DNA of 63,639 nucleotides, filler included, from Collodictyon triciliatum (taxonomy: Eukaryota), in assembly GCA_043381765.1 (NCBI GenBank). It is 3 parts of 3 records of this genome, joined end to end, with 100 filler letters (N's around TTAATTAATTAA, not from the genome) between each part and the next. Parts side by side here need not be neighbours in the genome. Positions count along the whole stretch, not along the records: positions 1 to 21,213 come from JBHJMP010001197.1; 2 more parts are not named here. One strand, written 5' to 3'. The notes under the pieces are model-generated. The model saw nothing but the letters and a program-made list of their open reading frames with translations, did no database searches and was not told where the DNA came from. The position numbers and the translations under genes were made by a program. The number at the start of each line of letters is the position of its first letter. Positions within the stretch are counted from its first letter, which is position 1. Of this stretch, positions 91 through 42,567 are shown piece by piece.

Positions 91-262
91 TCCTTCCTTT
101 CCTTTCCCTTCCTTTCCCTTCCTTTCCCTTCCTTTCCCTTCCTTTCCCTTCCTTTCCCTTCTTTCCCTTCTTTCCCCTTCTTTCCCCTTCTTTCCCCTTC
201 TTTCCCTTCTTTCTTTCTTTCTTTCCTTACTTTCCCTTTCTTTTCACTTCTTTTCCCTTTTT
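1..262. repeat. (TTTC)n / (TTCCCTTCC)n pyrimidine microsatellite at contig start
   Basis: Directly visible tandem TTTC followed by degenerate CT-rich repeats. Confidence 0.95.
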
Positions 263-278
263 CTCGGAACACGTTCAG

Positions 279-3200: not shown

Positions 3201-6200
3201 GGGAGGGGGAGAAGTGTTTTTTCATATTTCTCCATTTATTCCATTTCCAAAACAAGTCAATGCAAGCTTGGTGATGACTTGTTCCTTGGAATCGACACTC
3301 ACAAATTCATCCGATTTCATTTCATTAATTCGAGTCCAAAAAATTTTCTTCATGTATTTTAAAATTGAATTGTTCAATTACAGCTAAAATCAGAAAAGAA
3401 GGTGTTGACATGTCCCGAATCAGGTAATTTTTGTTTCGCTTTTATAGCTTCAACAAACGAAGCTTCAAGCTATTCCTGTAACATGTACTGAGGTGACTTA
3501 CATACATATTCTTGCAGAGATCTGGTTGATAAAGCCATACTAGAGCATTATAACCAGCTGGAAGAGTCTCCTGCTGACCTATTTTCCGGTTGGACTCTTG
3601 ACAAGATTTCCCTCTATATATTTGACATATCCGATTTAACTCTGATAATCATATAAAGTACACAAATTCTTTGTAATGATAAAGAAAAAATCAATTGAAT
3701 TTTACTGTGATGTGCAAATAGGTGCTTTAATTGTGGATTTCTTATACTCAAATTCCCTCGACTGCTTGCCAGAGTCCATGAAAGTATAAATATTTTTATT
3801 CCTTTAATTTTAATCATGCTTCTAGCCGGTTAAGTTTGAGATTCATTTTTCTTATATTACAACAAAAAAAAAGTAAATAAATTAAATATCATGTAAGAAC
3901 CATCGCAATTAATATCTTATTAGATTATAAGTCGTCTTGAAGAACTGAAAGGGACAGAATCGCAGTACTGGACCTCACTAATCGATGAGTACCTCCTGAA
4001 GAGGCACTATGTCGAAATCAAGGTTTCCTTGGAAACCTTTCCGCTATTTAATATTTTCCACCCAGTATTCCTTTTTTTTTATTTTTTATTTTTATTCAGC
4101 GTAGATGTTAAATGAAAAATATCACTAGGGAAAGCCCAGCTCATCACTTTCGAAGAAAATAGCTGGTACATTAAAATCATATCATTCTGGTATTTGATAG
4201 AGTCTTACAAAAAAAAAAAAAAAACCACGCATTCGCTTTTAGATGAAGAGAAGGAGCGTATCCAAAAGCAAAAAGACAGTCTAGGTACTATATCACTTCT
4301 CTCAACTAACCAAATTATCCCCGCAATTTATTTGTCATTTCGTCTTATCAAACCCAAACTTATGTGGTTAATCAGGGGAAGAAAATCTGAAGCTCAAGGC
4401 CCTGGCCTTGGATGAAGCCAATAAAAAGAACAATACACCTGTCCCTGAGTCTCTCTTCTCTGCATTTCCAGCTCCAGACCCCAGCAAGGTGAGTCTTGAT
4501 TATCGAATATTTTTTTATATATTTTTCGCTCTAATGTCGGCTTTGATTAAGACTAAGATAACATCCATCAGGTTCCACTTTTTGAAGTTAAGACGAAGAA
4601 ATTTGATGTCGGCGAGTCAGTAAGTATATTTATAACTCATTTATAATTTATATATAATCAAGGTATGGCTATTAACATATTACCAAATTCATCAGGACGC
4701 TCCCGAAGATGCACTACCGTTCTACCTTCAGGCATTCAGCATCCTTATATAAATACATATTCACTTTTTTTCATTACTTTGACATAATACAATTATTCAT
4801 GTCCAAATACAACCATCGGTTGCTGTAAGAGAACCTGATTTTTGTCTACTAACAACATCAACTACCACCCTACCCCAGCTGGATGCAGTGGAAACGAAAT
4901 TTGTTACTGTATCCATATTCATCGATACTTCTAATATCTCAGCCGAATTGAGACCATACTTGGAACTGTATCTAGATGTCTGTGTTGTTTTACTCTGGTG
5001 CTTACCTTAAGCCCAGTAGCCACATTACCTTTATTATTCAACTTCAATATATCTTCTTTTTCTTTTTCTTTTTCTTTTTCTTTTTCTTTTTCTTTTTCTT
5101 TTTCTTTTTCTTTTTCTTTTTCTTTTTCTTTTTCTTTTTCTTTTTCTTTTTCTTTTTCTCCCTTGGTCTTTTTCTCAAACTGGTTAACGTGAGACTTACG
5201 GCTACACTCTCAAAATAGCTGATGTTTGAGCTTCCTATGCTGAGGGATGGAATCTTAGTTCCGTACGAAAAAGTTATCTCTGAACTAGAGGCAGATACAG
5301 TGGGCTACGAGAATTCTATCGGACTGTCAAGTTCTGGGTAAGAAAAGTTGATATTGTCGTCTATATCAGAAACATTAGCACACATGCTTTATTCTTCGCT
5401 GTTTTATTATTCATTCATCGCGTCCCTAATGATTGAATGTAAGATGACCACAGCTCCCTTTTAATTGCAGATCTTTTACATGCGGCTCATTCTCTCAGTT
5501 ATTGTCTTTGAAATTGAAAGCTCCAGAAAAAAAATATGATGCAATTTTGAAATGGACGCGTGACATTTTATTCAATTCTAAATTTACCATCGAACGTGTG
5601 AAAGTATCCCTCAGCAAGCTTTTAAATGAGGTTATATTCTTTTGTTTACCCTTTTAATTATTTATTAACTACACAAATATTAAATTTGGTTCATTTTCTG
5701 CACTTTGAATCGAATAAAGGAAAAAATTTTGGTTCATTTTGGATTACTCTTATCATATGATGCTTCGATTATTGAAGAAATAATTAATTATCCGCCTTGG
5801 GAAAATTAAATCTTATCAAACCAAATCAAGACCTTTTCATTCAGTATATATGATTAGGCAATCAGTTCGAAGCGAAATGGCTCTACTATGTCTCGCGCTG
5901 CCTTAAGAACTCTCCTATTCGATGAGAAGAAAAGTAATCTGAATGCTGTTAACGTCTTAAATCAAGTAACATTTTACTTCCCCCTCGATCTATAAAGTTG
6001 TGTTTTGTGACCATAACCATCCTGAAAAAAATAATAATACTCATCCCCTACTCTGTCGTTTGTCTCCTATCCCTTTCATCCTTTAGCTCGTATTTCTCCA
6101 AGGTCTCAAAGAGTCATCTGAATCCAACGCTGCTCGTATAACTGGTATTTTTTTATATTGAAAAAATGCAATCCAAACAATCCAATAATTTTCTCATTTT

Positions 6201-8782
6201 AAACTGGGTTTTATTAGAATTTTGGTATATGGTTTCTATATAATTTTGCCTTCGCTTTTGCTCTTGCTTTTGTTTGTTTGTATTTTTTTTTGTTTTTTTG
6301 TTTTTTTGTTTTTTTGTTTTTGTTTTTGTTTTTGTTTTTGTTTTTGTTTTTGTTTTTGTTTTTGTTTTTGTTTTTGTTTTTGTTTTTGTTTTTGTTTTTG
6401 TTTTTGTTTTTTGCTTGCTCTTTGATTTGCTTTATTTCATCACAATACTGGCCCATGTTAAAATTCTAGAAAAGCTGAACGAGCTTCGAGCTGCTCTACT
6501 ACAACCTTTAACCATGTATGCCCATGTGTCGGGGTCTTCGGATGTTATTGGACTGGGGACCGTATGAATATTTCTGAGAAAGAAGAAAAATGCATCAGAA
6601 TGCCTATATTTGAAAAGTCTAGAAACCATATTTAATTCATCTCTTATCCACACTTCTTATAAAAACAATTTAATCGGTTCAGAAACCTTGGGCTGCCATC
6701 TTTGGGGCATCTTGCATGGTTCGAGTGACAATTTATATGAGCGATATATTTGAGATTGAAGACAGCAATTCTTGATATCAGTATAACTATTATTTAAATT
6801 CAATGTACCTTCGAAATTTAGGGAGATGTGAAATACAATCACAAAGATTCTGTTCCATACTCGTATGCTTTACTCACGGACAAAGCTCTTGGTGGTTCAA
6901 AGAAGGCATCTAGCATAAATACTGACGACATTAATTTATTCATTTTTATATATGTGGAAGTGTCTTGTCCCTTCAAAGCTTTATTAACCAGATATTTCCA
7001 GTTGCAAGTATCGTATATAACATATTTCTAACCCCTATAATTTTTTACATGAATAGATTGGCTATGTTTTCCCAATACCCTCCATCGAAAGTGGGTTCCT
7101 CGCTAAGTCATGCACTGGGCCTCAGGGTTTTCAGAATCACGTATACACTCTACATAATTTTCTTTGAGTTAAATCACATCCTTTCTTTTATTAGCGCTCT
7201 GATACCCCATCTATCAATCACACAACCAGCGTACAGAGGGCACTCAAAAAACACAGACGATTCATTTACTTTTCTTTTTTATCGGAACTTGGTCGATTAA
7301 AAAATATCACAAATAACTAGGATACGCTCCCTCTGCGCGTCCTTATCGAATACTTAACAAACCTAGAGGGGCCTATGTGGAGGGAAATTAGAGGTCTAAT
7401 ACCATTTGTTTCGTTTCGCTCATTTATCGTAATTTCCTTCTTTCCTTCTTTCCCTTTTTCCCTTCTTTCCTTCTTTCCTTCTTTCCTTCTTTCCTTCTTC
7501 CCTTTTTCCTTTTTCATCTTCGTAGTATTTTGCCAATTTTTTTTCTCTTCAGTAAAGGTATGTTTTGACAGTTTATTGAATTATCACTACCGTTTCACAT
7601 ATGAATAAAATTGCCTTAGGACTTGGTTTGGCATACTCTTACTCTAGTTTTGTCAACCACGAGGATGGTCTTCTGTACTTCGTATTGTATAGAGCATCCA
7701 ATCTCCTACAGGCATACTCCCAAGCAAAGACTATCGTGAAGGAATTCTCCGAGGGAAAGGTAAATTTGAGACATTAACACCGAATTTTAGTCTTTTCGTT
7801 TGCTTTTTTTCACCCAATCAGATATGATGAACCAATATTTCGCTCTAAAATACATATGTGAAAAGGAAAAGGAACCAATTTTCTTTATTCCATTCTAGCG
7901 AGTCTTCAATGACACCGAAATAGGTGGAGCGAAGGCGTCCGTTATTTTCGAGATTATCTCTCAACAGGTTCAGTAAAGCTTTCTCATCATACAGTTCACG
8001 CAATCAACATCGTTATTTTTGTAATCTTGTCTAGCAACTCTAATCCTTTTCGAATATATTACTTTGCAGCTGAACTCCTTTATTCACTATATTTCTCTGT
8101 CATCGCGGCTGCTTATTTGTCTTTTAGGAAACTGTTGGCGCAGCCGCATCCCACTCCATGGAAAATTACTTCAAGCGCGTGCCTCTTACTCACGACAAAG
8201 AACTTCTCTCTCGAGTAAAGGTGCTACTTTTACATTTATATATATATATTTAATATCAGCCCCACTTCAAATTTCAGGCAATCCATAGTGTGCTGAGCTC
8301 TAGGTTCCGTTAATCGGATACAATTTTTTTTTGTATAATCAAAGCAAAACACCACCGCTTCTAGGCCATCAGACCTGGGGACCTTATGCTTTCTTTGAAA
8401 ACGTTTTATCTGCGACTTTTTGATGAAGACTCCAGCACGCTGACATTCTGCGTAAACCCGGCTGCTGTAGACTCAGTAACCTCAGGTAAATTACCGGAAA
8501 ACAAAGATTTTTCGTGCTATTTATTCTTCATATCTTTTGCTATGTAAATGGTGGGGTACCGATTTTACAACTTCCTGCTATATGGTTACGCACTCCATAG
8601 CCTTCCTTTCCGAGCACCAGTTGGAAGTAAAACTCCTTCCTGCTGCCGAGGGCATTGACTTTGAGAAGAAGAAAAAGAAGGACGAAGGGAGCTCAAGTGG
8701 TTCGGACAGTAGCGACGACGAAGACGAAGACGATGAAGGTGATGAAAGCGACGAAAGCGAGGATGATGGCGATGATGAGTAA
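279..8782 (+). CDS. Multi-exon M16-family (insulinase/PreP-like, SDD3/YOL098C-type) zinc metallopeptidase, 5' end missing
   Basis: Spliced translation GPLVNGFFTLSTEAHDDDGCPHTLEHLIFLG|SEEYPYK|GVLDTLANKCLAQGTN|AWT|ATDHTCYTVST|AGSEGFLTLLP|VYLDHILYPTLTES. Inverted zinc motif HxxEH (HTLEH) at 341-355. C-terminal LEGPMWREIRG|LGLAYSY motif. Acidic tail ending TAA at 8782. More than 30 small exons. Confidence 0.88.
5056..5160. repeat. (TTTTTC)n intronic microsatellite
   Basis: Visible tandem repeat within an intron. Confidence 0.95.
5685..5740 (+). mobile_element. Micro retro-insertion (CTTTGAATCGAATAAAGG + A tail) with target-site duplication
   Basis: Core at 5703-5720, flanked by direct repeat TTTGGTTCATTTT at 5685-5697 and 5728-5740. 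Confidence 0.65.
6283..6412. repeat. (TTTTTG)n intronic microsatellite
   Basis: Visible tandem repeat. Confidence 0.95.
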
Positions 8783-9751: not shown

Positions 9752-12700
9752 ATGCGTCCAACCCGCTTGGGCCAGACACTCGTGGGTATCATTGTCCTTG
9801 TCTTGCTTTCGTCTTATGCAACTGCACTGATTGATCAAACAGAGAAGGCATGCTCACAAGAGGTTAAAGTTACTCATACAGCGAGCCCGTCAGTGAGCGC
9901 AACAGATTTTCCGCATTACCCCGAAAATCACCATCCGATATTGGTTCACGAAGATAACCCCGTTCGTGCTGTTGTCTTTGCAGAAGCAGCTGATTCGAAA
10001 CCGGCCAAGAGAGACGAAGAAGATGCGAACAATCGCGCCCTCTTCTTGGTAGAGTCTGAGGCAGAGTCGCTGCTGGAGGCGTCCGAACCTTACTTGCCCC
10101 TAGCTAAACCCCCAGAAGCTTTGAAAGACTCAAATGAGGACGCATTCCCAGCTAGGGAAAACCAAGATTCTGACGCCGATGATAGCAAAGAAGAGGCTGG
10201 TCATAACAACAACGGCATTCTGTATCAAGAGAACGTCCAAAATAATGATGTTGTCACTGTATCTGAGTCTGAATCTGAATCTGAATCCCTGTCCACATCT
10301 GCTTCTATCACTGTTCCTGGGTCGATATCCACCTCCTCCTCAAACACTGAACTGAATGATGACGTGTCTGGCTCTAGTGCTTCGAGTCGCATGGAGTCAG
10401 TTGTGACTGCTCCTCACTCAGAATTACAGGATACTCAATCCGTCTGGAATTCAGCCTCCCTCACTACATCCAGTACACCCTCTGCCTCATTTTCAGTGAC
10501 CGAATCGTTCAGCGAATCTGAGAGCTCATCGCCAACTGCGACATTCTTTCCATCAGAATCCGGAACTAGCTCCCTCCTCGACCAAGCCTCGCCCTCGGAT
10601 GCCCGTCCCTCGAAAGAAGTGACTACAACCGCTAAAAGGTCTCGTGCTTCACCTTCTCAGCCTCCTTCGTCATCGAATGCGGTGCATCCTTCTACACATG
10701 AATCACAGTCACTCTCCATGTCAAAGACAGCATCACCTTATGTATGTACAGGAGATAGCTCAGAAAATTTATGTGGTTTTTGCGGCCCGATTCAACCCGA
10801 AATAGATGTCTCTCTTGAGTTTACTCATGCCTATGGTGGATTCAAACAACCTGATACTCATCGTTTGTCTCATTGGGTATATATCAGAAACATTACAGGC
10901 ACCACGGATATATATTCAGAAACCACAGTTGAGGTCTCAGTCTCAAGTGTAACATCTATTGCAGCCCAATTGAAGCCTTCCAAAATCGAGCCCTTCGCCC
11001 CAACTGGGATTACACTGTCTACAAACATATATAGCTCTTCCCCATCACTCGGCCTCCGTGTCTGGCTTACTGGACAAAACGGTGAGACAAACAACAAAGG
11101 CGGGGCTATTACAATCAGCACAGTCGAGATACCGTCCTTGATGTCTTCATGCATATACGATGGGTTGAACCCGTGTTTGGCTACTCTTACAGTTCCGGAG
11201 TCTGCATTCACAACCACAGATGTCACTATCACCCCTGTAGTATCATTCGCCACAAAGATTGTCGCATTGACACCAGCTACGCTCGTCGCCTTACCAACCT
11301 ATGGCTCCAATCCATCTGCAGGAATGAAATTGCAGCTGCCACAGAAACCCAACCTACCTTCATCCACTTTCACATCGACATTGACAGCGTACACAAACGG
11401 AAGAGTGCTCGAAGGCTTCAACGTTGTCATCAATATACCATCCTCTGTAGCGTCCATTGTCAGCATCAGCGGAGATGGCAAGTTCTCGGGTGCAACAAAC
11501 ATCCAACAAAATAGTGCATCGATAGTGTGGACACGCCAAAGTGGCGTCAGCGATTCATCTGCCACAGGAGCGATCAACGTCGCAACAATCACATGGAAGA
11601 TGAAGGATTCGCCCACACAGAGTAGTGGCGAAGTCAGCTTCGTAATCAAACAGATGACAGACGTCCAGAACATACCGATAGTCAGCGAGTCAACAAACGG
11701 AATTGTGTTTGATATAACACAGTCAAGCGAGACAGGATATATTGTTGTTGCTCAAGACTCTGTAAGAGGACATTTCATCACTTCTCTTCAGCAGCAAATC
11801 GTCAACACAGCCGTAATCACCAAGCAAAGTGTGGCCGTACCACTGAAAGTTGTAGAGTTCTACGAGTTTCAAACACCAAAAGACATTACGTCACAAGCAT
11901 CATGCACCAGCTCCGACCCACAAGTCGCACCCGTACAAGGCTGTACAATTGTCATGACAGGCAGTGAGACATCCGGCTCAAGCTTTGTGTCGCTCTCATT
12001 CAATGCTGCAACCACTGGTGTCCGCGTGTGGTATCCAGCAGCTCCTATTAACATAAGCACCCCCGACAGGATACTCAATCGAATATCCAACTTCAAGACG
12101 GCTGATTGCTCTGGTTATAGATACCAAAGCAGCAAAATCACTGCGACTGTATCATTTGTGAGCGGAAGTGACAGCTTCTTCGCCGATGTATCCAAGTTGA
12201 TTTCTCTAGAGGTATCTGACAGCAGCATTGTGAGTGTGGAAGATAACACAGTTATTACCGGTATTGCAGCAGGAGCTGTCAATGTCAATGTCGCCGGATT
12301 CCCATCAAACACAATATCATTGAGTGTGACCGACATCGAAGTCTCCGTGACGAAGCTGATGCCAATCGTGTTCACCGACGTATCGATAGTTTCAGTGACA
12401 CCAAGCGATGCATTGACACCCACATCCATCAGTAGCGTGAAGGCGTCCGTGTCTCAAAACCTGGACTTTGAAGGCAAGGTAGGACATGTTGTGGTGTACG
12501 CCTACTTTTCTGACGGCACACGAATGGAGGTACATGAGTCGGATGGTCTCGCCATTACATCAACCAACCCTTCCATTTCAGTCATGAGCTCGCCTCCAAG
12601 AGTGATATCCGTCTCCAACGGATGCGGGTACTATGTCAACGCACAGTGGAGCTCCTGTGGAAAGAGCCTGAGTGACGGACTCGGACTCGTCAACTTGAAT

Positions 12701-15700
12701 CTACCCAAGATTACTCAAATAGCAGTGACAGTCACAAATACTAAAATCACGAGTGCCAATGACCCTTCTACGACTGTTGGCATACCCACGAAGAGCAATC
12801 TGAAGGTAATGTGCACATTCGAGAATGGAAAACAGAGTGACTACACACTAGACTCCAGGACAAACTATGACGACATCACAGCTGATACAAGCAATATCAT
12901 TCAAATTGAGACGGCTACAGTGTCATCCAGCGTCACAGAGGTCTATGTGGTTGCAACAGGCAGTGGCTTCGGAACCGCGGCGATAGTAGTGACAGTCAAC
13001 AGCGCACCCAATTTACAGGGAAGCGTGGATGTCACCGTGATTGGATTTGCGTCACTGAGTGTCTCTTCCAGTCCATATCCGACATACACAGGCTCCACCA
13101 CAGTGTCGCTGACTAAGCTGACTCGCTATGAGTGCACACAGGTCTATCAAAGAGCGACGCTGGCATTGTCCATGAGACTGACAGATAGCTCTGTGCATGA
13201 CATCACATCAAAGTCATCGACTGTATTCTCTGTACCCACAAGTCAGCAAAGTATTTTGGTAATCAAAGACAAAAATATTCTTGAACCAACTGGCACACAC
13301 TTTGGAGCTGCTACAATCACAGCCTCTTACGGCGATGTGTCAGCTACAATAGACATCGTGGTCGCGGACGAAACAGTGAGCGCAACATCGCTAGCAACCG
13401 TATTTCCGTCAACATACACCGGTATCATCGGAACATCAACACAAAGCATCAAAGCGACTGCCGTATTCCAGGATGGAACAAAACATCCAACGGCCCACAC
13501 CATTACTGGGTTTTTATCTTACACCAGCGATGACCTGAGCTCAATAGCTATGGACACCGCAGGAACTGCAACAATACAAGCAAACTCACTCAGTATTGTA
13601 AAGCTTACATCATCAACATGCTATGGAGTCGTAGGAACGTTAAGCACCTATGCCAATCTGAGTCCGGATGTTGGCGATATCGATATTGGAAGCACGAGCG
13701 ACCTTTCATTGAGCAACATCGCAGTCGGGTCCAGCTTGACAGTTCCTGTCCGTGTCAACACGGGAACAAAGGCACTTGGAAGTCTCGATACTAGTCTTGT
13801 ATATGACGCAGACATATTCGATGTTATTTCATACTCCACTGGAAGCGGCTGGCCAGGCGGACAGTTAGAGATTACCCTGAACGACCCACCAGGGGTCATT
13901 CGCATTGTAGGAGCAACAAGCGCAACCAGCAACTCAAAAGGAACACTAGAGGTTGTCAAGCTAGTAATCAGAAGCAAACAGGACGGACTATCATACTTTA
14001 CTGGCTTCATCACTAAAATGCTAGCTAACGACGCAACGTCTTCACCAATCGGAAGCGCACTTGGGCAAGGAGAGACAAGAGCAATAGTAGCTGGTAATGC
14101 TCCAGTAAAGAGCGGAGCCGGAATCAATTCGAGAGCTTCGACGAGGAACGAAATGAATCTGACTGTGGGATATGAAAGCACTGCAGCCATCCGACTAGCT
14201 GGCAGGATATCGCCGACATGTGACCCGGCTAGTATTCTTGGAAATACAGACGGAGACTGCGAATTCTCAGTCGGAGATGTCCAGTTTACATTGAGGTATC
14301 TAGCTGGACTAGTCACGGCACCAGTCCAGTCCTACCAACTTCAATTTTTGGATGCGGACAGAAGTGGAAACATTCAAGTACAAGACGCGATATACTTGAT
14401 TCGGGTGTTGGCGAACAAATGGCGATTTTTCAATGTCCGCACTATTGAGCCGACCAGCTCCAGTTCCTATCTTCAAGTTTCTATAGACTCACGAACAGCT
14501 GATATGGCGTACTCATCGGCCAAGACGTCATATGACATAATTTTCTTGACAACGTTGAACGCAGATATGAGCATTATAGCAGGAACTAACAAACAAGCGT
14601 TAACTGAAGGATTCCAAGTATCGAGTAACGACTTGAATAATGGGACGTTCTCTGTATGTGGAAACACATACAGGTCAGAGATTATTGGGATTACAATCCA
14701 TCTGAAGACATATGATAGTCTTGGGCAATCATCCAACGACCGAGACGTGACATTCTATCAAGGAGTGGGAGGTACTTATGTGAGTTTTACAACAATAGTC
14801 GCTAGATTTGACACAACTCAATCGCAATCGCAATCACAATCTCTGTCTCAATCTCAATCTCAATCTCAATCTCAATCTCAATCTCAATCTCAATCTCAAT
14901 CTCAATCTCAATCTCAATCTCAATCTCAATCCCAATCCCAATNNNNNNNNNNNNNNNNNNNNNNNNNNNNNNNNNNNNNNNNNNNNNNNNNNNNNNNNNN
15001 NNNNNNNNNNNNNNNNNNNNNNNNNNNNNNNNNNNNNNNNNNNNNNNNNNNNNNNNNNNNNNNNNNNNNNNNNNNNNNNNNNNNNNNNNNNNNNNNNNNN
15101 NNNNNNNNNNNNNNNNNNNNNNNNNNNNNNNNNNNNNNNNNNNNNNNNNNNNNNNNNNNNNNNNNNNNNNNNNNNNNNNNNNNNNNNNNNNNNNNNNNNN
15201 NNNNNNNNNNNNNNNNNNNNNNNNNNNNNNNNNNNNNNNNNNNNNNNNNNNNNNNNNNNNNNNNNNNNNNNNNNNNNNNNNNNNNNNNNNNNNNNNNNNN
15301 NNNNNNNNNNNNNNNNNNNNNNNNNNNNNNNNNNNNNNNNNNNNNNNNNNNNNNNNNNNNNNNNNNNNNNNNNNNNNNNNNNNNNNNNNNNNNNNNNNNN
15401 NCAATCCCAATCCCAATCTCAATCTCAGTCTCAGTCTCAGTCTCAGTCTCAGTCTCAGTCTCAGTCTCAGTCTCAGTCTCAGTCTCAGTCTCAGTCTCAA
15501 TCAGAATCTGTATCAGAGACAAACTCTGTGTCACCTATGGGTACCCATGGATTCTCTCAATCGGAATCGACTCACAGTAACGCCCAATCGGGAACGGAAT
15601 CAATTAGTTGGTCCAGAAGCCTATCTGTTTCTGGTTCCATTGATTCTGATACACTCCAGGCATCAAAATCGAGTGTAGATTTAATAACTTCTGTCCTCGG

Positions 15701-18700
15701 GACTCAAACTCAGCCACAGATTTTAAGCCAAAGCTTATCTCTGAGCTATAGCTCGGCTCATTCCCTGTTGAATCCTACTACCAGTCATTCAGGGTCTGTT
15801 TCTATGATACATTCGCAGTCCTCCTCGAATGATGTGAATATGGCCACTGATTCCGTAAGTATGAGTCAAATCCAGTCGTCAGACACTGGACCCCCTTCCT
15901 ACACTGTAACTACCGGTAACGAGAAGTCAAACTCGAAGTCCCTTGGTGAAGTGAAATCCGTTTCTGAACCTCCATCACACACTGAATCCATTACACATTC
16001 TGAAACATCATCAGAGTCAAAATTCAAATTAGTCGAGACATATGAAACAAATCCCAACTCAAATGCTGAGACAGAGACAGTATCTGGATCAGAATCTTCC
16101 AACATTACCAAATCCATTATTAATGATAATGCCAGCCACTCTCGTATTCTGACAAGAAGCTCAACTAAAACATCCAAATATTCATCGGCTCAAATTAAGA
16201 GTCTCATCTACCCCACAAGCTCAACAAAATCTTCCATCGTCATAAAGTCCAACACCCAAGCCAGTCAAACGGGTAAAAATCTATCAAATAAAATGCAATC
16301 ATCTATATATTCAGATCGAATCTCAATGAGTAAGAATACTATCAAGCCTTCAGGCTATACTCCTTACTCTTCTTCCAGCTATCAAAATATCTCAGAGGAA
16401 CATTCTTCATCTGGTTCAAAGAGCAGCAGTTGTTCCGAATATATAAAAGTGTCACGCTCATTGTCCTATTCTGTTGGCTACCAAAAATCTCAGAGTATGG
16501 ACAATAATTCACCAAAGTTAGTAAGCTCTGGTCAACTTGTAACTCAATCAAGAAAAGATATACAGAGCTTATCTCAGTTAAAATCTCTTGGAAATGTGTC
16601 TAAGACATCTTCTGTCTCCAAAAATTACTCTCAGATAAAATCGGTATCATCTGTCTTTTCTCAAACAAGACTATCTACTGGTAATCCACGAGAGTCCCCG
16701 TCTATGTCTCAGAGCCTTCCGCTGGACTGCCCTCCCGGTACGTACCCCAATGAGTGTCGGCAGTGCGGCCCGAAGAAACCTGCAGTTCCCATTGAATTTT
16801 CTCTCATCCCCAGTGACGCTGGATTTACACTCGGTAAACCATATGCCGATATGAGGAACTCCTGGTCATCTTTCCAAAACTTCACTGGAATCCGCTACAA
16901 CCCTGACACTCGAATCGCTGCAACTGTAGCCAACCTGAACAGCAATGTTGCAACTCCTCACTCGAAGGTTGTCGCTGTTTCTCCTAAAGGATTTACTGTC
17001 ACTACATCAATTTACAAAGGAAAGTCCACCATCTTTGTTCGAGCTTGGCTTGTTGGTTCCAACGGAGAAACAGTCACAAGTGGCGGGCAAATCCAAGTTC
17101 ACATCAGAGAGTTTCCCTTGCTCTCTGCCAACTGCAATAACGATGGATTGAGTCCTTGCTTGTTAGGACTCCAGGTTGGGGATAGCGTCTTTTCAACCAG
17201 TCAAGACACTACTCTCACCCCGATTATCACTTTCGGCGCTCAATTTATGGAACTGGGTACAGTCATCGCCAAAAAGGTGCCAACATACAGCCCAAACCCT
17301 GTAAGAGGAATGGTGATGAATATTCCAATTCCCCCGGTAGTCCCAGGGAACAACTTCCAAACACCAATCACTGCATTAACTGGTGACTCCATCCTTCAAG
17401 GGTTCACTGTTTTGGTCTCATTTGATCCTTCTATTCTTCAAGTGGTATCAATTGATGGAGGAAGTAAATATGCTGTCACACCAAACCTCAACGACCAACC
17501 CATTTCCATAGTGTGTCTTAAGTTGGATTCATTTGACAACAACCAAGCCAAAGGAACAATTACAAATGCCATCACAATCACATGGAAATTTGTCTCATTA
17601 CCACAAAGTAATGAGGCACAAATATCCTTTACAATATCCGAAATGACTGACATCCAATCATACCCGATTCTTGACCCAAAGACCCCTGGGGTGGTTCAAG
17701 ATGGGAAAGGGTCTGGAACTGTTGGTTACATAACTCTTGCAGTCGACAGCATTCGTGGGTACTACATTACCTCGCAAAAACCAGAAGTATTTAATCTAGC
17801 TGTTCTCAATCTTCAAAACATCGCAATTCCGCTGATTGTTCATCAATTTTGGGAGTTCAAAGGAACGGTTGACGTTAGTGCCTCGTCCCAATGTTCACTA
17901 AACGATGGTACAATCGCCAAGGTGTCTGGGTGCACGATTACGTTCATAGGAAACGAAAGCAACGGGGGCTACCTTTCTGTTGCAACAAACGGTGTACAAA
18001 CTAGCATCCGTGTGTGGATTCCAGAGACGCCTGTTCAGTTGCTTATTGATGATACCACTCTACTTGCCATCAACGGAACGCTAGATGCTTCATGCCAGAA
18101 GCCCATGTACCAAAAGGCTCAAACCAGAGTCCAAACAAAGTTCAAGAGTGGTGCTGAATCATTCCTCGCCGATGTTACACCATTTGTCGCCCTAACATCT
18201 TCCAATAACGATATTGTTGTTGTGAATGGAAAGGAAATTCAAGGCGCAAATCCAGGCACAGCAACTATTTCCGCCAGCCAAGTCGCATCCAACAGCATCA
18301 CAATAACAGTATCTGATGAAAAAGTATATGCTACTCATCTTGAGGTTGCAGTAGTTACCGATCTGAGTGTTTCAACACGAGAAAATGGCCCATTCAGAAC
18401 ACAAGACTTGGGTAGTGCCATAGCAATCGCAACCCAAAATTTTGCAACGGAGAACAAGGCTGGTGGGGTCGTTGCATATGCTTCATTCTCAGATGGAAAG
18501 AAAATGGCCATCACTGAAAGCATGGGACTGTCGCTGTCTGCAGCTAATCCAACCATTTTGATTACCAGCAATCCCTTGACTGTCATCGCTAAAGATGCCG
18601 GATGTGGGTACTACGTATTGGCAGATTGGAGCGTTTGCGGACAGTCAGTTGCCTCTGGGAAAGGACTTGTGAATTTGAAGCTACCAAAAATTACTTCTAT

Positions 18701-21213
18701 CACCGCAAGCACAGTGGAGAGCCCGCGAATCACAAAGTCCACTGACATTTCTGCCTTGGCTGGAGTCTTCACTTCTCTAACGTTGTCTGTATATGTGAGA
18801 TTCGAGACAGGACAAGTCATGGATTACACTCTCGATTCTCGCACAATCTACACTATCCCAGAAGAATCCAAAGGCACCATCAAGATAATTGAATCTCAGC
18901 AAGATGGAAAGCGCACATCTATCAAAGTTCAAGTTATCGGCGACAAGGTTGGGCAAGCAACTATACGTGTCGGCATATCAACCGCCCCTGATGTTAGCCC
19001 CGCAACAGTTGTTGTGAATGTGGTGTCATTCAAGAAATTGAATTCGGACGCAAATCCATTCCCCACATTCAGCGGTTCAAGTTCAATATCAAAGCTTACC
19101 TTGAAAAAAATTGAGTGTACTTCCATTTACCAACAAGCAACACTTCGACTTTTCATGATTCTGTCCAATAACGACGAGCTTGATGTCACCTCAAGCCAAT
19201 ATACATCGTTTAATCTCCACAAAAATATTGGAGCAGACATCTCTGCAATCAGTGGAAGAATTGTATCACCCACCGGGGCCGCTTTTGGTCAAATCAATAT
19301 CGACGGAACATTCTCAACGGCAACGTCAGAACCCCTTATCATTACAGTGTCTGATACCTTAGTGAGCGTAACATCTTTGTCCACATCTTTCCCTACGACC
19401 TTTCGCGGAATTCAAGGCAAATCGACCCAAAAGATGGGTGTCTCTGCTAACCTTGGGGATGGAACAATATTCACTGATGCGACAGGATTAACGGGACTGT
19501 TATCTTACACTTCATCCAACACTGAAATCATATCGATAAATGCAGTGAGCGGCGTCGCAACTCTTCACGAAAATTCCCTCACAACTATAGCACTGTCTGC
19601 ATCGACATGTAAGGGTGTATCCAGTTTGTCAGCTGTATACCCCAACTTAGATGCTGATGTCGGCGACGTCGATATTGGCAAGGCTGATGGCGCTCAATTC
19701 AGTGTATTGCAAGTAAACTCACAATTTGTTATGAGTGTATTCATCAATACGGGGTCTCAAATCCTTGGTAGCATGGACCTTGTGGTGACATATGACGGGG
19801 ACTACTTGACTGCCATGAGCGCCCAGCAGGGAAGCAGTTGGCCAGGCGGTCAAATCGACATTTCATTAAATGACCCTATTGGGAAGGTGAAAATTGTCGG
19901 AGTTACAACACCAGGAACTTCGGCTAGTGGCACTCGCATTAACATCGCACAAATCACATTCCAAGTCACCAAAAATGGTCAATCTGTTGTCTCGGGGTAT
20001 GTGAACAAACTCCTTGGCTCAGATGTGTCGGCTACGCCCATCGGACCAGCACTTGGCGTGGGACAAACACGTATATTTGTTGCTGGTACAGGTTACATTC
20101 AGATTGGCAGTCAAAGAAGCATGAATCTGATGCGAATTGAGAGACAGAATATTCATACAGCACTTCAAATCGAGAACAGGAAGATAGGCCGGTGTAATCC
20201 CTCCACTATCAGAGGAAATGCAAACAACGACTGTGAATTCTCCGTCGCAGATGTCCAGTACACAGTGCAGTATATCGCTAATTTGATAAAGACGCCGATG
20301 ACAAACTCTCAAATGAGATGGCTGGATGCCAACGAAGACGGAAAAGTTGGTATACCTGACGCAATATTTCTGCTCCGTGTGTTGTCCGGAAAATGGAGAT
20401 TCATCGATACAAGCCTTACTTTCCAACAAGGTTATGCGTGCATACCTACATTCAAAGTATCACCGAAAGACATGACTGGAGCGATTCTCACAAGCCGAAC
20501 AAAGTTTGCCTTCGATATTCTCACTACAAACAACAAGGACATGACAAGCACGGTGGGGACAATACAGCATACAACTGCCGTTGGAGTGTATGCAATCCCT
20601 TCGCTGTTAGATTCAGATTATATGCTCCGCTTCCGCACCAAACATGCCGAGGAATCCATCGGAATTGCATTCACAATGACCACGTATGATGCTAATGGAA
20701 ATAGTGGACTGGACAGAGAAGTCACGATGTATAAAGGACTGAATGACGTAATCTTGCCATACAAATCGTTCAGCCCTTTGAACATGTCTTTGATGGCATC
20801 ACCAAAAATGGTCTCAGCCAACTTTGAGCCCCTTGGTCAGAACATCAGCGTTGTGTTCGATATGCCAACCGACAGAGCAGGGCTGTCAGACACTTTTGGT
20901 TGCGAGAAGTTGTTTGTAGGACTAGATGGAATCAGTTGTAATTGGGATGATGACAGCACCGCAGTCATTCAAGCCTCATGCAGCAATAAAATAACTAATG
21001 GGACTGTTATAACCCTAGTTGAGGGAAACTTGCGCATTAAGTCACCATGCGTTGGCGCCCCAGCAAGCTCAGGCTCGATAACAACCTCTATGCCTTCCAC
21101 GGTTGTATCCATAATTGTGGGGCTTTCTGGCCCTCAGAGAATCGGAAAGTGCTCGCAACTGGACGTGGATTCTTCTGCGACCAAACTCATATCGAACAGG
21201 TGCTTAAATCTAT
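9752..21213 (+). CDS. Giant secreted/surface protein: signal peptide, Ser/Thr-rich stalk, 2x [TMEM132-like cohesin + Ig domains, second cohesin, dockerin], REJ/polycystin-like segment; spans an N gap and is 3'-truncated
   Basis: ATG at 9752 followed by a hydrophobic signal (LVGIIVLVLLSSYATA). ORFs 9710-14942 and 15402-21213 both abut the gap with (SQ)n. TMEM132-like motifs VRVWYPAAPINISTPDRILNRI..C..YRYQ and IRVWIPETPVQLLIDDTTL..C..MYQ. Cohesin-like VGSSLTVPVRVNTG..LGSLDTSLVYD. Dockerin double Ca-loop motifs in both modules. Confidence 0.85.
13700..14115 (+). other. Cohesin-like domain (module 1, second cohesin)
   Basis: AVGSSLTVPVRVNTGTKALGSLDTSLVYDADIFDVISYSTG...GVIRIVG...GTLEVVKLVIRSK matches the cohesin beta-sandwich pattern (G-x-x-x-x-V-P-V, YD, terminal G-x-V). 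Confidence 0.75.
14240..14423 (+). other. Dockerin domain (module 1)
   Basis: GNTDGDCEFSVGDVQFTLRYLAG ... DADRSGNIQVQDAIYLIRVLANKW, a duplicated Ca-binding loop-helix. Confidence 0.85.
14816..15500 (+). repeat. Coding hexamer repeat (TCTCAA/TCTCAG)n encoding an (SQ)n linker, interrupted by N gap 14943-15401
   Basis: The same SQ-encoding repeat is present on both sides of the gap. Confidence 0.9.
19690..20110 (+). other. Cohesin-like domain (module 2, second cohesin)
   Basis: VNSQFVMSVFINTGSQILGSMDLVVTYDGDYL...WPGG...GKVKIVG...INIAQITFQV aligns with the module-1 cohesin. Confidence 0.75.
20214..20396 (+). other. Dockerin domain (module 2)
   Basis: GNANNDCEFSVADVQYTVQYIAN ... DANEDGKVGIPDAIFLLRVLSGKW. 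Confidence 0.85.
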
Positions 21214-21313
21214 NNNNNNNNNNNNNNNNNNNNNNNNNNNNNNNNNNNNNNNNNNNNTTAATTAATTAANNNNNNNNNNNNNNNNNNNNNNNNNNNNNNN
21301 NNNNNNNNNNNNN
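21214..21313. other. Artificial contig-joining spacer (N44-TTAATTAATTAA-N44)
   Basis: All-frame stop linker at 21258-21269. An identical 100-bp spacer lies at 42468-42567. Confidence 0.97.
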
Positions 21314-25700: not shown

Positions 25701-28700
25701 AAACATGACATGCCAATTATGCGTTCATTTATTTATTTTTTAATTTTTACAAATTTTTAAGGGATATTATTATGAATAGGTTAAGGGAAAAAAGAAAACA
25801 CCTCTCCGTTTTCCGACTCCTCCCGTGAAACGCCCCATCTCAAATCGATGAATCTAATCGCAACTCCAAGCTTATGAGCGGCATTGATTATGCTATGAAG
25901 GAAATAATAACAAAAATTAATGAGGTTCTTTCTCAAGGATTGCTAATTGAATTTTTTCAACCTTGGTTGTGCGTATCTGCAGAAGCTCTCGCGAACCATC
26001 TTCATGTCCTTGAATGTGGAAGAGAGAAAAATGTGAATATCCTTCATACCTTCCTTTAATTTTTCCCTTTCTATAGGTTTTGTTCCCGGCATAATGAAAA
26101 CGCAAAGTGCTTGTTGGAAGCTTCAACCCCATGTATTCGGCCTGTTTGATTTCGTGCACTTCCCTACTGCTGCATTTGACGTTTGGATAAAACGGATTCC
26201 ATTTAATAGGAAAAGCAAGAAATTCGAGGTTTGTAAGTCGCTCTCCTTTGCTTTCAGGAACCAAGACTTCTGATTCAATCACATTTGCGAACTCTGGTCT
26301 GAGCAAGTGAATATGTTGATGAACTTTTCCTACTTGAAATTTCTCAATGCATTTTGGACAAATAATCCCTTCTTTTTGGATGGCAATATTTACCTTTGGT
26401 TTTATCAATTCATCCACAATGAATTTGATTGCTTTGTACGTACAACTTATACCGTTTAAGGTCTTAACAATAAGAATGATTTTTTGAGTGCTGGGTAGTT
26501 TGAGATACTTTGGTTGGTGTTGAGTCTCCTATTTATATTTAAATGCTTTGTTATTAGAAATGTACAAAGAGTTAAGAAAAGAAAATAATGACACTTTGTA
26601 TCCATCAAACACATATACCTGGAAAGTGGATGTTGGTAAAAAGTACAATAATGCAGCGAAATCGTTATTTTCATTCATCAGCATCCTGCCTTCCGAGTCT
26701 TCAGTCAATGAAAAGGGAAATATCATGCGTTGTTTGCTAAGAAATAAACTGGATGGTAATATCTTAGAGTAGGCATTCAACTTTGTCACAATATCACTGA
26801 TAATGTGGCTGATGCTATTTTTGGGAATTTCGTGTTGGTATTGAATAATGTAATGAACCGCTTCCTTAACCCCAGATAGGTCCGTAACCCAAACATCATT
26901 AGGTGTTTCATCATCCACAAGGATAGGAAAAATGATTTTCGTCTTATTAATATAATAAGCAAGTTTATAGTCACAAAATAGCTTTATGACCTGATTTGAA
27001 AATTCTGGTATCGAAGATGGTATTATTGATCTGCATTTTGATTTGATTACCATCTTTATTGCTTGTTTGAGCTCTGCTTCTTGGTAGATGCCTCTGATTT
27101 TGTTTCTTTGATTTTCTTTGAGAATTTGAGTTTTTGTGACGGCCTCAAGGTTAAAAACTTCACGGAAACATGATATCAATATGTCTGGGTCAAGAAAAAC
27201 TGCATCGCCCATTTTTTCGCCCTTTTCGTTCCAGACAATAATGCCCAAGTCGGCAAGGAATCGAAGAGCTGATTTAGTTTGCTCTGCATCTAAATCGAAA
27301 CTTCTGCCCATGTCAAGTGCATCTTTAATCGACACTGACGGAAATACCTGTCTCCACAGAATCAAAACGTCCTTGAGCTGATTGTATTTTCTTGGTATGT
27401 TTTGTCCGACATTCGGCAACTCTAATAACTCGCGGTGAATGTGCTCTTTCAGCTCGAATATGCCATCACCAGTATTGCTGCTAGTCATAAAATGACCGCA
27501 AAATATTATTTTACCCTTATAGTGTTCTAAGACTTTCAGTCTCTGATACGCTTGCTCACATGCTCCTTTGGCCTCATCCACATCCTTCTGGGCTTCGAAT
27601 GTGTCTAAGTGCGTTCCCACAAGGATAAGATGGGCTCCCGAGCAGATATTGGAAACCATATTAAGCCATTGAGCCACACTCGCCAGTTGCGGTTTTTCTG
27701 ACATATTGTAAACTACCAATGTTAGTGCGTTGCCAGCCAAGAAAAATGAATGAGTTGCGTGGAAAATATCCTGACCACCAAAGTCCCATATTTTTGTATT
27801 GATGCTTGGCTCTATATAATCCAGAAGAATACCATCTTTCTCAATTTCGATTCCATCCGTTCTTTTTCGTTCAGGGTCTACCGTTGAGATGAAACGTTCG
27901 GGTGTTCTGGGTTTGTCTTGCCTCAGCGACATTCTCAGTGTCGTTTTTCCTGCTTCTCCCTCACCAAGTAAAATGATTCTGCCTTCTCTGTTTGTGACTA
28001 CATCTCCAAGTGATGCAAGATAGTCATATATATCCGCAGAGTCTCTCTGAAGTACATTCAGAGGAATATTCTTGATAGTGTTCCCCTCAAAGCGGAGTCC
28101 AGTTCTTAATTTTTTTATATTTGCGAGGATAGTCGGGATTTCCGTTATCTGCATGATAAGAATGATTTTTCAAAGAATTGGATTGGTCTGTTGGCTTGGA
28201 AAGGAGAAGGCACTATTAGAAAAAGAAAATTACATGCGATTTTTTGTTATATACATTTGAATTGGATAAAACAAATGACCTTGTTGTGAGAGAAGTTCAA
28301 TTGTTCTAGGTTCGTGAGACCAGAGATAGAATCAGGGACTGCAGTCAGCTAAAATTGAAATTGTTTACAACAAAAAGCCTCATTCATATAATTCACTTCA
28401 AAAGAAAGTTTTCTATCATTTTTTACTTGACATTGCGATATATTCAGCCTTTTCATCCAAAACATGACACTGAAGCACGAAGGTATTGTTTTTATCTATT
28501 GTGTCACCAAAAAATTAATTCGAAATCTATATATTTAAATAACATTTCGGTCAATACGAGAAAAATAAATGATACTGAAATAATCGTGTATTATAAATAG
28601 AAACCTTGTTGAGTGACATATCCAAAAACTCGACCGCGTTCATGTAAGACAGATGTTCGGGGCATTCGGTAAACTATTTAAATCTTAATTTTAGACCTTA

Positions 28701-32081: not shown

Positions 32082-33307
32082 GTGGTTGGTAATATCAAGT
32101 CCATAATCGCCTCTTGGAAAAGATTCCATCTGCCAGACATCGGAAAAGGAAGGCTATGGAACCAACTCATGCTATCGACCCTCATCCACAACATGAAGGG
32201 CTCTTACCTGCCACAAAAGTATCTCGACACACTGAAGAGTGTATGCCGCACCTTCATCACAAGAAAGAGACAGCAATACAAAATCAAAACACTGATTAAG
32301 CCACCCACAGAAGGAGGCATTGGACTCATCACACCTAAAACCGCATGGATATCACTGACCATGAAGTGGTGGACGTAGATGTTCATGCAGCCGAAAGGGT
32401 TTTGGCAAATTAGGATGTGGAAACTCATCGCCAAACTGTGTGCAGACTTCAAAACACAGTTGCAGCAAAGAACAATCCCACGACCACCTCCAAACACACC
32501 AGAGCCTTTGCTCTCGTGTTGGCAGATTCTGTATACTCATTGCGAAATGACAATACACCTGAACGAGCCATTGGCAGCAGGACAAATATGCTGGGACAAC
32601 CAGAAAGGCTTCTGCATCATCAAACAGATTCACGACATCCCCTTACACACCATCATAGAAATCTCATTCAAAGAAGACGGCGCATACATCACAACGCCAG
32701 GTTCCACCGCATTCTGCACACAAGATGCAAAGCCAACCACAGCCGTCCTGAATAACAAAGGAAAATGGCGCTCACGCAGACCAATTTATACGACATCCCG
32801 TCGCCATTCTTTTTCCGCCTCAAGAACGAACGCTCGTCTAACGGTGCGCAGTCTATTCAGTTCTCGATGGCTATGGCCTACTTCAAATTCTTTCGATACA
32901 AAATATAGCCGCCGACACCCTACAAAAAGTCAAAACATCAACGGTTAGGAGAAACACTGGGCATCACCCACACCCCGCTCACCGCGAGCTGGAGACAAGC
33001 GCGAACCCCGCAAGTCCTTCCAAATCACTGCTCTCTAATGCTTAATATCACCAATAGGGAGCTATGGATAGGCACACGCACAACAAAAGCTGTCAAAGTC
33101 TCCCAACAATGCACACTTTGCAGCAACGGTGATGAATCCATTGAGCACACATTTGTGCAATGTCCCTTCGCTCAAAACCTGCGCGAAACAGCCGGTGAGA
33201 TTCTTCGACTGACACTCAAGACGGCTGCGGCTGTTGGCCCAATCCAGGCGATATTTTTGCCTCTGCAACAGCTGCATCCAGATGCAAAAACATTCTGGGC
33301 AGTGACA
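32082..33307 (+). mobile_element. Degenerate, 5'-truncated non-LTR retrotransposon (L1/Tx1-like ORF2 C-terminus with zf-RVT)
   Basis: WKRFHLPDIGKGRLWNQLMLS...KPPTEGGIGL (post-RT motif) and CTLCSNGDESIEHTFVQC (CCHC zf-RVT). In-frame TAG at 32376-32378 and frameshifts. A/C-rich strand bias. Runs into an N gap. Confidence 0.8.
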
Positions 33308-42467: not shown

Positions 42468-42567
42468 NNNNNNNNNNNNNNNNNNNNNNNNNNNNNNNNN
42501 NNNNNNNNNNNTTAATTAATTAANNNNNNNNNNNNNNNNNNNNNNNNNNNNNNNNNNNNNNNNNNNN
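42468..42567. other. Artificial contig-joining spacer (N44-TTAATTAATTAA-N44)
   Basis: Linker at 42512-42523, identical in layout to 21214-21313. Confidence 0.97.

Follow-up and report, generated by a model that had tools for sequence, protein, structure and literature searches.

A locus of the freshwater protist Collodictyon triciliatum raises the question of what the cohesin of TMEM132 proteins originally bound. The ligand of the animal TMEM132 cohesin has been left open, vertebrates having no dockerin (PMC6030884). TMEM132 as well as coherins, lefftyrins and hedglings have a conserved region, a cohesin and three Ig domains in that order, an adhesion role has been proposed and the layout has been given an early holozoan origin, and animal TMEM132 stops after the third Ig domain, with this first cohesin (Coh1) kept and no dockerin (PMC6030884). 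In this study, we analysed a window of 63,639 nucleotides, made of three joined contig parts, in which a large putative surface protein carries both cohesins and dockerins.

Extent of the gene and layout of its modules

ORF A starts at 9752 and enters a gap of 459 N at 14943-15401, and ORF B is open from upstream of that gap through to 21213. A Ser-Gln hexamer repeat, identical in kind, lies on both flanks of the gap, and no hydrophobic signal was found at the start of ORF B (best 19-residue hydropathy window 1.5, against 2.3 for residues 9-27 of ORF A), thus ORF A and ORF B likely form a single ORF, their reading frames being offset by 1 base across the estimated gap length. RNA contigs overran the end of the compared stretch in all four runs (two among those listed by 114 and 131 bases), in a comparison that was made without the Ser-Gln repeat and module A and proves neither transcription nor the joining of the two ORFs. 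The stretch described in the initial annotation ends at 21213; this position is the end of the contig, followed by an artificial join (Table 1), so the gene is truncated there and the protein continues beyond. Pieces of an upstream gene gave no Pfam match. At the N-terminus, the Ser/Thr-rich stalk that had been described was recovered, and the signal peptide is probable by hydropathy and by eye.

Modules A and B align over 1374 aa with 36% identity, and the suggestion of two diverged modules with two cohesins and a dockerin each is borne out. The order in each is conserved region, Coh1, six Ig domains, second cohesin (Coh2), dockerin and a beta domain (X), as annotated, with "several" Ig-like domains now exactly six between the cohesins. 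The cohesins and dockerins were revealed by a Pfam scan of 16 cut pieces, both having been missed by whole-ORF scans. PF16070, the fourth domain of TMEM132, exceeded its cut-off in both ORFs, and PF23486 and PF23487 fell below it, yet in the expected order; Ig domains 1-3 of module A, with boundaries taken from the structural model of module B, correspond to TMEM132 domains 4-6. Judged by sequence, the modules are of the TMEM132 type, a cohesin being followed by three tandem bacterial-Ig domains. A conserved domain ahead of Coh1 is found in both modules and may, by its position, correspond to the pre-cohesin region of TMEM132, with Atlas lead scores of only 0.79-0.80 and no Pfam match among the cut pieces of either. 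The model of the whole module reached pTM 0.63, and its Foldseek matches are generic Ig arrays. No carbohydrate-active domain was found by Pfam in the part of the protein present, in agreement with the initial annotation.

Table 1. Features of the locus, in positions of the window
Feature	Position	Strand	Basis
Probable signal peptide, aa 1-25	9752..9826	+	sequence by eye; hydropathy peak 2.3 at aa 9-27
Acidic region followed by Ser/Thr-rich stalk	9827..10738	+	S+T 24-42% in aa 101-300
Module A Cys motif and conserved pre-cohesin region	10739..11299	+	aligns with B; placed by TMEM132 layout; no Pfam match
Module A cohesin 1, TMEM132-type	11306..11752	+	alignment to B Coh1; Coh1-Coh2 family profile 98.3%; sub-threshold in Pfam
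Module A six Ig-like domains	11753..13666	+	PF16070 E 4.6e-15, PF23486 E 3.9e-5, PF23487 E 0.075
Module A cohesin 2	13667..14116	+	PF00963 42.8 bits, E 7.6e-11
Module A Coh2-dockerin linker	14117..14218	+	without dibasic site
Module A dockerin, two Ca-binding loops	14219..14422	+	PF00404 14.2 bits (sub-threshold); loop residues
Module A beta domain X, after dockerin	14423..14803	+	aligns with B; family profile
Ser-Gln repeat with 459-N gap, then ~440 aa Ser/Thr-rich spacer	14804..16724	+	sequence
Module B Cys motif and conserved pre-cohesin region	16725..17291	+	aligns with A; Atlas leads only, best 0.80
Module B cohesin 1	17292..17741	+	PF00963 21.7 bits, E 2.5e-4, sub-threshold; Coh1-Coh2 profile; all-beta in model
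Module B six Ig-like domains	17742..19655	+	PF16070 E 1.2e-6; AlphaFold2 pLDDT 88.8
Module B cohesin 2	19656..20108	+	PF00963 31.3 bits; Z 14.5, rmsd 2.4, 133 aligned to solved cohesin
Module B Coh2-dockerin linker, Arg-rich	20109..20192	+	one RxxR, no KR/RR; pLDDT 59-61
Module B dockerin	20193..20396	+	PF00404 18.3 bits (sub-threshold); PDB sequence matches; three modelled helices; docks on Coh2 in model
Module B beta domain X	20397..20777	+	nine strands in model
Start of stalk leading toward REJ domain, truncated by contig end	20778..21213	+	colinear with Diphylleia P0002
Artificial contig join (N44, six-frame stop linker, N44), not gene sequence	21214..21313	.	same join at 42468-42567

The initial annotation proposed a check against cohesin, dockerin and TMEM132 profiles. 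Coh2 of both modules and the fourth TMEM132 domain lie above the Pfam cut-offs, and both Coh1 copies and both dockerins below them (24.1 bits for cohesin PF00963, 22.9 bits for Dockerin_1 PF00404). Coh2 has the type I cohesin fold (Z 13-14.5 against solved cohesins), and by profile and fold it is a cohesin. Module A Coh1 gave only DUF5616 (E 0.064), and Coh1 is read as a cohesin because its family profile matches that of Coh2 at 98.3%. The dockerin cut-off is attained by the relatives P0019 and P0023. In the window, both loops of both dockerins have D/N at Ca-binding positions 1, 3 and 12, and position 5 is S in a single loop and D in the other three; the top two PDB sequence matches of the module B dockerin are dockerins (E 0.1 and 0.39), and its helices are modelled at 201-211, 221-227 and 237-247. 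The duplicated Ca-binding loop and helix of a dockerin are present.

The dockerin and its two candidate partners

Modelling of cohesin-dockerin complexes, which the initial annotation had put forward, was positive for the pair with Coh2, at 0.65 against 0.02 for the best of 3 controls; the runs share at least 97% of contacts with partner pLDDT of at least 64, and, among microbial pairs, 51 of 78 solved ones attain the mark, as do 2 of 108 mismatched ones. Cohesin-dockerin is a textbook pair, and the pass may reflect model memory; because no alignment entered the folding, covariation provides separate evidence. Among the top 25 Coh2-dockerin couplings, 8 lie on the predicted interface in 202 modules, against 5% expected, and 10 in 168 modules, including a small-large swap from G-F to V/L-A. 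The 25 best predicted contacts have a mean z of 1.65 in the direct register and -0.11 in the flipped one, and the direct register ranks first, none of 1547 shifted registers scoring as high. AlphaFold2 gave the Coh2-linker-dockerin-X segment a pTM of 0.89 despite a loose linker, and interface columns of Coh2 were not conserved above the rest (0.31 vs 0.37). Most likely, as model and covariation together indicate, the dockerin clasps the Coh2 of its own module.

Coh1, the cohesin retained by animal TMEM132, covaries with the same dockerin in a register flipped by 180 degrees, a relation new here: for 24 mapped pairs, the mean z is 0.09 in the direct and 0.97 in the flipped register, and only 1 of 1544 shifted registers scores as high. 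This signal, one of covariation, was first spotted in a control and tested afterwards. It recurs in disjoint subsets (9/1544 in cadherin-bearing rows, 6/1544 in other rows), in eight random halves (0-19 shifts as high), by Gaussian DCA (2/1544) and in 77 single-module proteins (0/1544). In 54 adjacent module pairs, own-module Coh1 is weak (162/1544) and the Coh1 of the next module does better (29/1544). When each dockerin was swapped for that of its nearest neighbour, the scores stayed at 1.08 (Coh2) and 0.65 (Coh1); independent changes are therefore few in this set, which comprises 168 modules, all related, taken from the top 150 among 1161 matches, and covariation within it is blind to cis versus trans. 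Coh1-Coh2 coupling showed no clear covariation pattern. These data suggest that one dockerin can snap into either cohesin of the module.

Some cellulosomal type I pairs have two binding modes related by a 180-degree turn, with helix 1 or helix 3 leading (bioRxiv 10.1101/2019.12.19.882373). The Collodictyon modules resemble them, as there described, in the cohesin fold, the two-loop Ca dockerin and this relation of the modes, but differ in that the partners lie in one chain, no enzymes accompany them, and the modes are apparently divided between two cohesins.

Relatives, linkers and the missing tail

The module was found in choanoflagellate, haptophyte, green-algal, collodictyonid and Myxococcota proteins. 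In 153 related proteins, which were picked by module similarity so that free dockerin proteins would escape the set, 202 of 210 dockerins lie directly behind Coh2; a dockerin follows 202 of 230 non-Coh1 cohesins and 0 of 194 Coh1 domains. Several Myxococcota matches end after the third Ig domain (profile positions 3-471), with Coh1 and no dockerin. Word-index protein searches gave only 1, 0 and 1 matches, and a genome scan with P0017 gave 66 loci, all matched on Cys repeats, with the module in none.

The furin motif R-x-[KR]-R is carried by 114 of the 186 long linkers between Coh2 and dockerin, whereas upstream windows give a mean of 0.46 and shuffled sequences give 23; two dibasic sites are present in 132 of the 186 long linkers, and the count for short linkers is 0 of 16. 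In most eukaryotic relatives, this linker looks to be excised by a furin-type protease. The two linkers of the window protein have neither furin motif nor KR/RR and may stay uncut, that of module B having 6 Arg in 42 aa versus 2.2% elsewhere; the linker of Diphylleia P0002 has one KR. Bacterial linkers are 3-18 aa as parsed (20 of 22 rows), partly the last cohesin strand.

The closest relative is P0002 of Diphylleia rotans (EukProt EP00002_P011346, unannotated), which carries a single full module; where this aligns with module B, the identity is 38%. It differs in having one module as assembled, no signal peptide, and a complete REJ domain (E 6.9e-50), GPS (E 8.8e-11) and one membrane segment downstream of the stalk. 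The stalk from 20700 is 38% identical over 172 aa to P0002 1466-1637, and this colinearity suggests a REJ-GPS-membrane stalk for the missing tail of the window protein; the likeness to polycystin-1-like REJ-GAIN receptors concerns the stalk of P0002, with its single membrane segment, in a region that lies outside the window. The N-terminus of ORF B showed no significant likeness to P0002. Window modules and P0002 form a group (100% SH-aLRT), which is joined by one bacterial clade (98% SH-aLRT). A transfer of the gene between this lineage and Myxococcota is not claimed, a single bacterial clade not being rejected (AU p 0.134, 30 rows, LG+G4).

Compared with the core of coherins, lefftyrins and hedglings, the window protein adds three Ig domains, Coh2, dockerin and X, and lacks cadherin repeats, which are carried by the relatives P0019, P0026 and P0028 and had no match in ORF A, ORF B (the 3' part of the gene being absent) or P0002. 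TMEM132 proper has a membrane helix directly after the third Ig domain and PP1/WIRS motifs in its tail, where the window protein has three more Ig domains, Coh2, dockerin and X. The work of Peer 2009 reportedly covers choanoflagellate cohesin and dockerin modules, so a publication on the dockerin itself may exist already. In the literature compared, with Peer 2009 and Nichols 2012 outside it, we found nothing on a dockerin ligand of TMEM132 modules, a layout beyond Holozoa or a cleaved clasp, and the passages of PMC12484212 compared held no mention of eukaryotic modules. The tandem repeat, which the initial annotation had singled out, is not special, since choanoflagellate and sponge cadherins also repeat the TMEM132-like module (PMC6030884).

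Competing readings and their meaning for TMEM132

We consider it moderately probable that the protein is a membrane-anchored adhesion-type receptor with two ancestral TMEM132 modules, whose dockerin binds its own Coh2 or, flipped, Coh1. Behind a signal peptide, a mucin-like stalk and two full-length modules there would be, to judge from P0002, a REJ-GAIN stalk like that of polycystin-1 and a single membrane helix. The Ca-binding dockerin would bind Coh2 of its own module with helix 1 leading, according to model and covariation, and covariation suggests that the same face may alternatively bind Coh1, turned by 180 degrees with helix 3 leading; both modes would use a groove on the two-fold axis of the dockerin, and thus should be mutually exclusive. 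By default, Coh2 would serve as clasp or cap. Coh1, separated from it by six Ig domains, would be the alternative partner, in the simplest case that of a second copy of the protein, so that molecules or cells would form self-matched contacts with one another. For most of the eukaryotic relatives, a furin-type cut would leave the clasp joining two chains non-covalently.

It is rather unlikely that the dockerin has its own Coh2 as sole partner, in a structural or force-bearing link, with Coh1 binding something else and its covariation reflecting shared ancestry. Shifted registers have the same ancestry, yet all but one fall short of the flipped score, and the Coh1 signal falls where the symmetry of the dockerin would place it, is absent from the direct register, and recurs both in non-overlapping subsets and by a second method; on the other side, the Coh2 signal exceeds it in every subset, Coh2 is the sole cohesin folded with the dockerin, the nearest-neighbour swap retains two thirds of the Coh1 score, own-module Coh1 is weak in multi-module proteins, and animal TMEM132 (PMC6030884) and several Myxococcota matches have Coh1 without dockerin. 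Chains or a coat, built by dockerins that mainly bind Coh2 or Coh1 of other copies, are improbable: a chain with two modules does have four cohesins for its two dockerins, covariation cannot separate cis from trans and the very short bacterial linkers (3-18 aa) may keep a dockerin from its own Coh2, but the model of a single chain stays rigid from one side of the linker to the other (pTM 0.89), a linker of 30-45 aa would give a high local concentration, and the paired cleavage sites of relatives are most easily explained by a cis complex holding the pieces together. The coat lattice of the initial annotation is also less likely than a membrane-anchored receptor because the tail leads to a REJ-GPS-membrane stalk in the closest relative. 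Its scaffoldin-like platform, recruiting separate dockerin-tagged enzymes or adhesins, appears very improbable, even with a type I cohesin fold in Coh2 and cohesins twice as numerous as dockerins, as the dockerin has a constant place in the module (in a set selected by module similarity), both cohesins covary with this built-in dockerin, and no catalytic domain was seen.

The adhesion or assembly role that had been suggested for a TMEM132-type surface protein is supported, and so, by the Coh1-dockerin covariation, is the idea that this protein reveals the binding partner of the ancestral TMEM132 cohesin. More tentatively, the receptor reading may extend to the family: the full ancestral TMEM132 module would be a self-capped switchable adhesin common to several eukaryotic supergroups and Myxococcota, in which Coh2 holds the dockerin, Coh1 of another molecule captures it flipped, and, in most eukaryotes, a furin-type cut makes the cap a releasable non-covalent link on top of a stalk of REJ-GAIN or cadherin type; animal TMEM132 would be the front half, with Coh1 kept and the dockerin lost. 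The layout extends past Holozoa to haptophytes, green algae, a collodictyonid-type protist and Myxococcota, the cohesin-dockerin pair is suggested as the clasp of a cleaved receptor, and the module supplies a testable candidate for the ancestral ligand of the TMEM132 cohesin, together with its binding orientation.

Module anatomy and gene structure

The initial annotation placed cohesins and a dockerin in each of two modules, and this holds. Coh2, the second cohesin, cleared the Pfam cut-off in both modules A and B, while Coh1 (the cohesin kept by animal TMEM132) and the dockerins stayed under it. The Coh2 fold is that of a type I cohesin (Z 14.5, rmsd 2.4, 133 aligned), profile-profile comparison of the Coh1 family with Coh2 gave 98.3%, and two Ca loops are retained in both dockerins. 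For module B (1162 aa), AlphaFold2 with 46 alignment rows reached pLDDT 88.8 and placed six Ig-like domains between Coh1 and Coh2, after which come a loose linker, the dockerin with its three helices, and beta domain X. The published TMEM132 module core comprises a conserved region, a cohesin and three Ig domains; cadherins of choanoflagellates and sponges carry it in several copies, and dockerins are undetectable in vertebrates (PMC6030884). While the text of that paper mentions neither a second cohesin nor a dockerin within the module, the window module has both besides. The protein belongs to the TMEM132-module superfamily; it is not TMEM132 proper, nor a cadherin as far as the sequence runs, and is probably not a scaffoldin.

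Modules A and B share 36% identity over a 1374-aa alignment. The gap between ORF A and ORF B, the frames holding them, falls within a Ser-Gln repeat. ORF A and ORF B likely form one gene with a single ORF, because hydropathy revealed no signal sequence of ORF B's own and the frames lie just one base apart across the estimated gap size. The contig terminates at 21214 in an artificial join; sequencing contigs from four runs of four studies (three freshwater RNA libraries and one guessed to be RNA) account for 18-29 of the 30 bins into which 15520-21212 was divided, most of them at ≥95% identity, and extend beyond its end. One contig of run X2 omits 698 bases of Ser/Thr spacer (15991-16690), and depth in this run is ~20-fold greater at the start of module B (16700-18110), which suggests length variants or close paralogues.

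No intron is apparent across the 11.4 kb of the giant gene (GC 42-48%), unlike its intron-rich upstream neighbour (GC 34-35%). By eye the latter looks like an M16 (insulinase-type) metallopeptidase; Pfam gave no match on three pieces of it. A protein kinase frame adjoins one of the two Roc-COR genes.

Features of the window (coordinates along the joined stretch)
Feature	Coordinates	Strand	Remarks
Intron-rich gene upstream of giant gene	260-8780	+	M16-like by eye
ORF A	from 9752	+	runs into 459-N gap
ORF B	to 21213	+	open from before 459-N gap
Roc-COR (Roco) gene	26529-28169	-	Pfam; other contig than giant gene
zf-RVT retroelement fragment	32909-34051	+	Pfam; with N gap
WD40 propeller and Ephrin-receptor-like Cys repeats	39510-42269	+	Pfam; 919-aa frame, cut near contig join
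NHL-repeat propeller	47512-48702	-	Pfam
Na/Ca exchanger	55155-56726	+	Pfam
Roc-COR (Roco) gene	58081-61694	-	Pfam; other contig than giant gene

Spread of the module

A profile built from both modules retrieved 1161 representatives at E ≤0.001 and 401 at E ≤1e-30, the best 150 of the 1161 being used for family analyses. Organisms could be named for 9 of 30 relatives looked up, namely Diphylleia rotans, Prymnesium parvum, a Pavlovales strain, Diacronema lutheri, Salpingoeca urceolata, Cymbomonas tetramitiformis (2) and Mesostigma viride (2). Many giant relatives combine cadherin repeats with two to four modules and would be coherin-type proteins. The module also matched in 22 of 401 genomes of the phylum of G004, labelled Myxococcota, and 16 of the 401 have the Coh2-dockerin-X part.

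Two matches of G004 (L067 and L083, contig C20) span profile positions ~3-470 and stop behind Ig domain three, where animal TMEM132 also ends; the same stop occurs in G294, G194, G314, G033, G344 and G239:C270, some of which may be contig ends. Beyond this point the G004 protein has Gly-rich, Cys-rich and beta-propeller-like parts. In the tree, modules A, B and P0002 (the Diphylleia protein) cluster with one Myxococcota clade; since the topology test did not reject a single bacterial clade, no gene transfer is claimed.

Proposed pairing of the dockerin with two cohesins

A scaffoldin-like docking platform had been proposed initially, and is disfavoured because dockerins sit behind cohesins within the module. 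Among 153 proteins (the 150 matches together with P0001, ORF A and ORF B; four members of clusters were excluded), a dockerin directly follows 202 of 230 non-Coh1 cohesins and none of 194 Coh1 domains; 202 of 210 dockerins are preceded by a cohesin, in a module-selected set outside which free dockerin proteins fall. The dockerin is thus part of the module.

Of the proposed cohesin-dockerin pairs, the one folded was that of module B: given as separate chains and with no alignment, its Coh2 and its dockerin are predicted to form a complex (score 0.65, best control 0.02; runs agreeing ≥97%, partner pLDDT ≥64). Among microbial pairs, 51 of 78 with solved structures reached the mark for this score, as did 2 of 108 mismatched ones, and a pair this familiar may pass because the predictor has memorised it. 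Covariation provides independent evidence, because folding used no alignment: across 202 modules, the 25 strongest couplings between the two domains include 8 on the predicted interface against 5% expected, and an Ig-domain control had no comparable enrichment. The three-domain single-chain model of Coh2, linker, dockerin and X reached pTM 0.89.

In the Coh1 control, top couplings reached positions 237 and 241 of the dockerin, which are related by its symmetry to the Coh2 contacts. In a test devised post hoc, after this signal appeared, 25 predicted contacts were transferred to Coh1 and the dockerin was flipped by its 36-residue repeat. Over 168 modules with all three domains, mean z was 1.65 direct and -0.11 flipped for Coh2, and 0.09 direct and 0.97 flipped for Coh1; of ~1545 shifted registers, none matched the real score for Coh2 and one for Coh1. 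The flipped Coh1 signal lay in the top 1.3% when the modules were split into two disjoint groups and in each of 8 random halves, and persisted under Gaussian DCA and among 77 single-module proteins. Against a Coh1 reading, swapping in the nearest-neighbour dockerin retains 0.65 of the 0.97, and 54 pairs of adjacent modules yield a weak own-module signal. The covariation points to putative binding of the dockerin by Coh1. While bacterial dockerins, as outlined in bioRxiv 10.1101/2019.12.19.882373, can dock on a single cohesin in either of two orientations related by a 180-degree turn, here the two modes seem to be divided between Coh1 and Coh2. In the predicted complex, Coh2 residue 87 contacts dockerin 204 and 240, as well as 208 and 244, which are symmetry-mate pairs, therefore the two complexes of the same dockerin should be mutually exclusive, and the dockerin might switch between Coh2 and Coh1.

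Possible linker cleavage and probable membrane anchoring

The motif R-x-[KR]-R is a mark of proprotein-convertase cleavage. It occurs in 114 of 186 long linkers (≥22 aa, between Coh2 and dockerin), against a mean of 0.46 (maximum 2) in upstream windows and 23 (maximum 35) in shuffles; 132 of the 186 carry two dibasic sites, whereas all 16 short linkers lack such a site. No dibasic site was found in the 20 of 22 Myxococcota genome linkers that parsed, all short, in a set partly duplicating the family search. Bacterial linkers (L068-L093) extend just a few residues past the final strand of the cohesin, a length that may not allow docking in cis, and several of these genes sit within open frames of 5,000-14,000 aa. 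Haptophyte and green-algal linkers (e.g. P0005, P0040, P0092) are often RRL-type in place of R-x-R-R (19 of 186 so classed), possibly recognised by another protease. In one group of cadherin-bearing giants (P0033, P0046, P0050-P0053, P0071, P0085, P0113, P0121, P0149), the long linkers of many modules carry no dibasic site, so that the cleavage motif may have been lost a second time.

KR or RR was not found in the linkers of modules A and B; that of B is Arg-rich with one RxxR, and that of A weakly Arg-rich. Judged from these motifs, linker cutting would be a family feature that the window protein may have lost. The best family match among the best 150 of 1161, P0002, carries REJ, GPS and a membrane segment downstream of its module, and the last 171 aa of ORF B (to 21213) track it at 38% identity. 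The source organism is probably related to collodictyonids. The window protein is thus probably membrane-anchored, and may have a role in adhesion.
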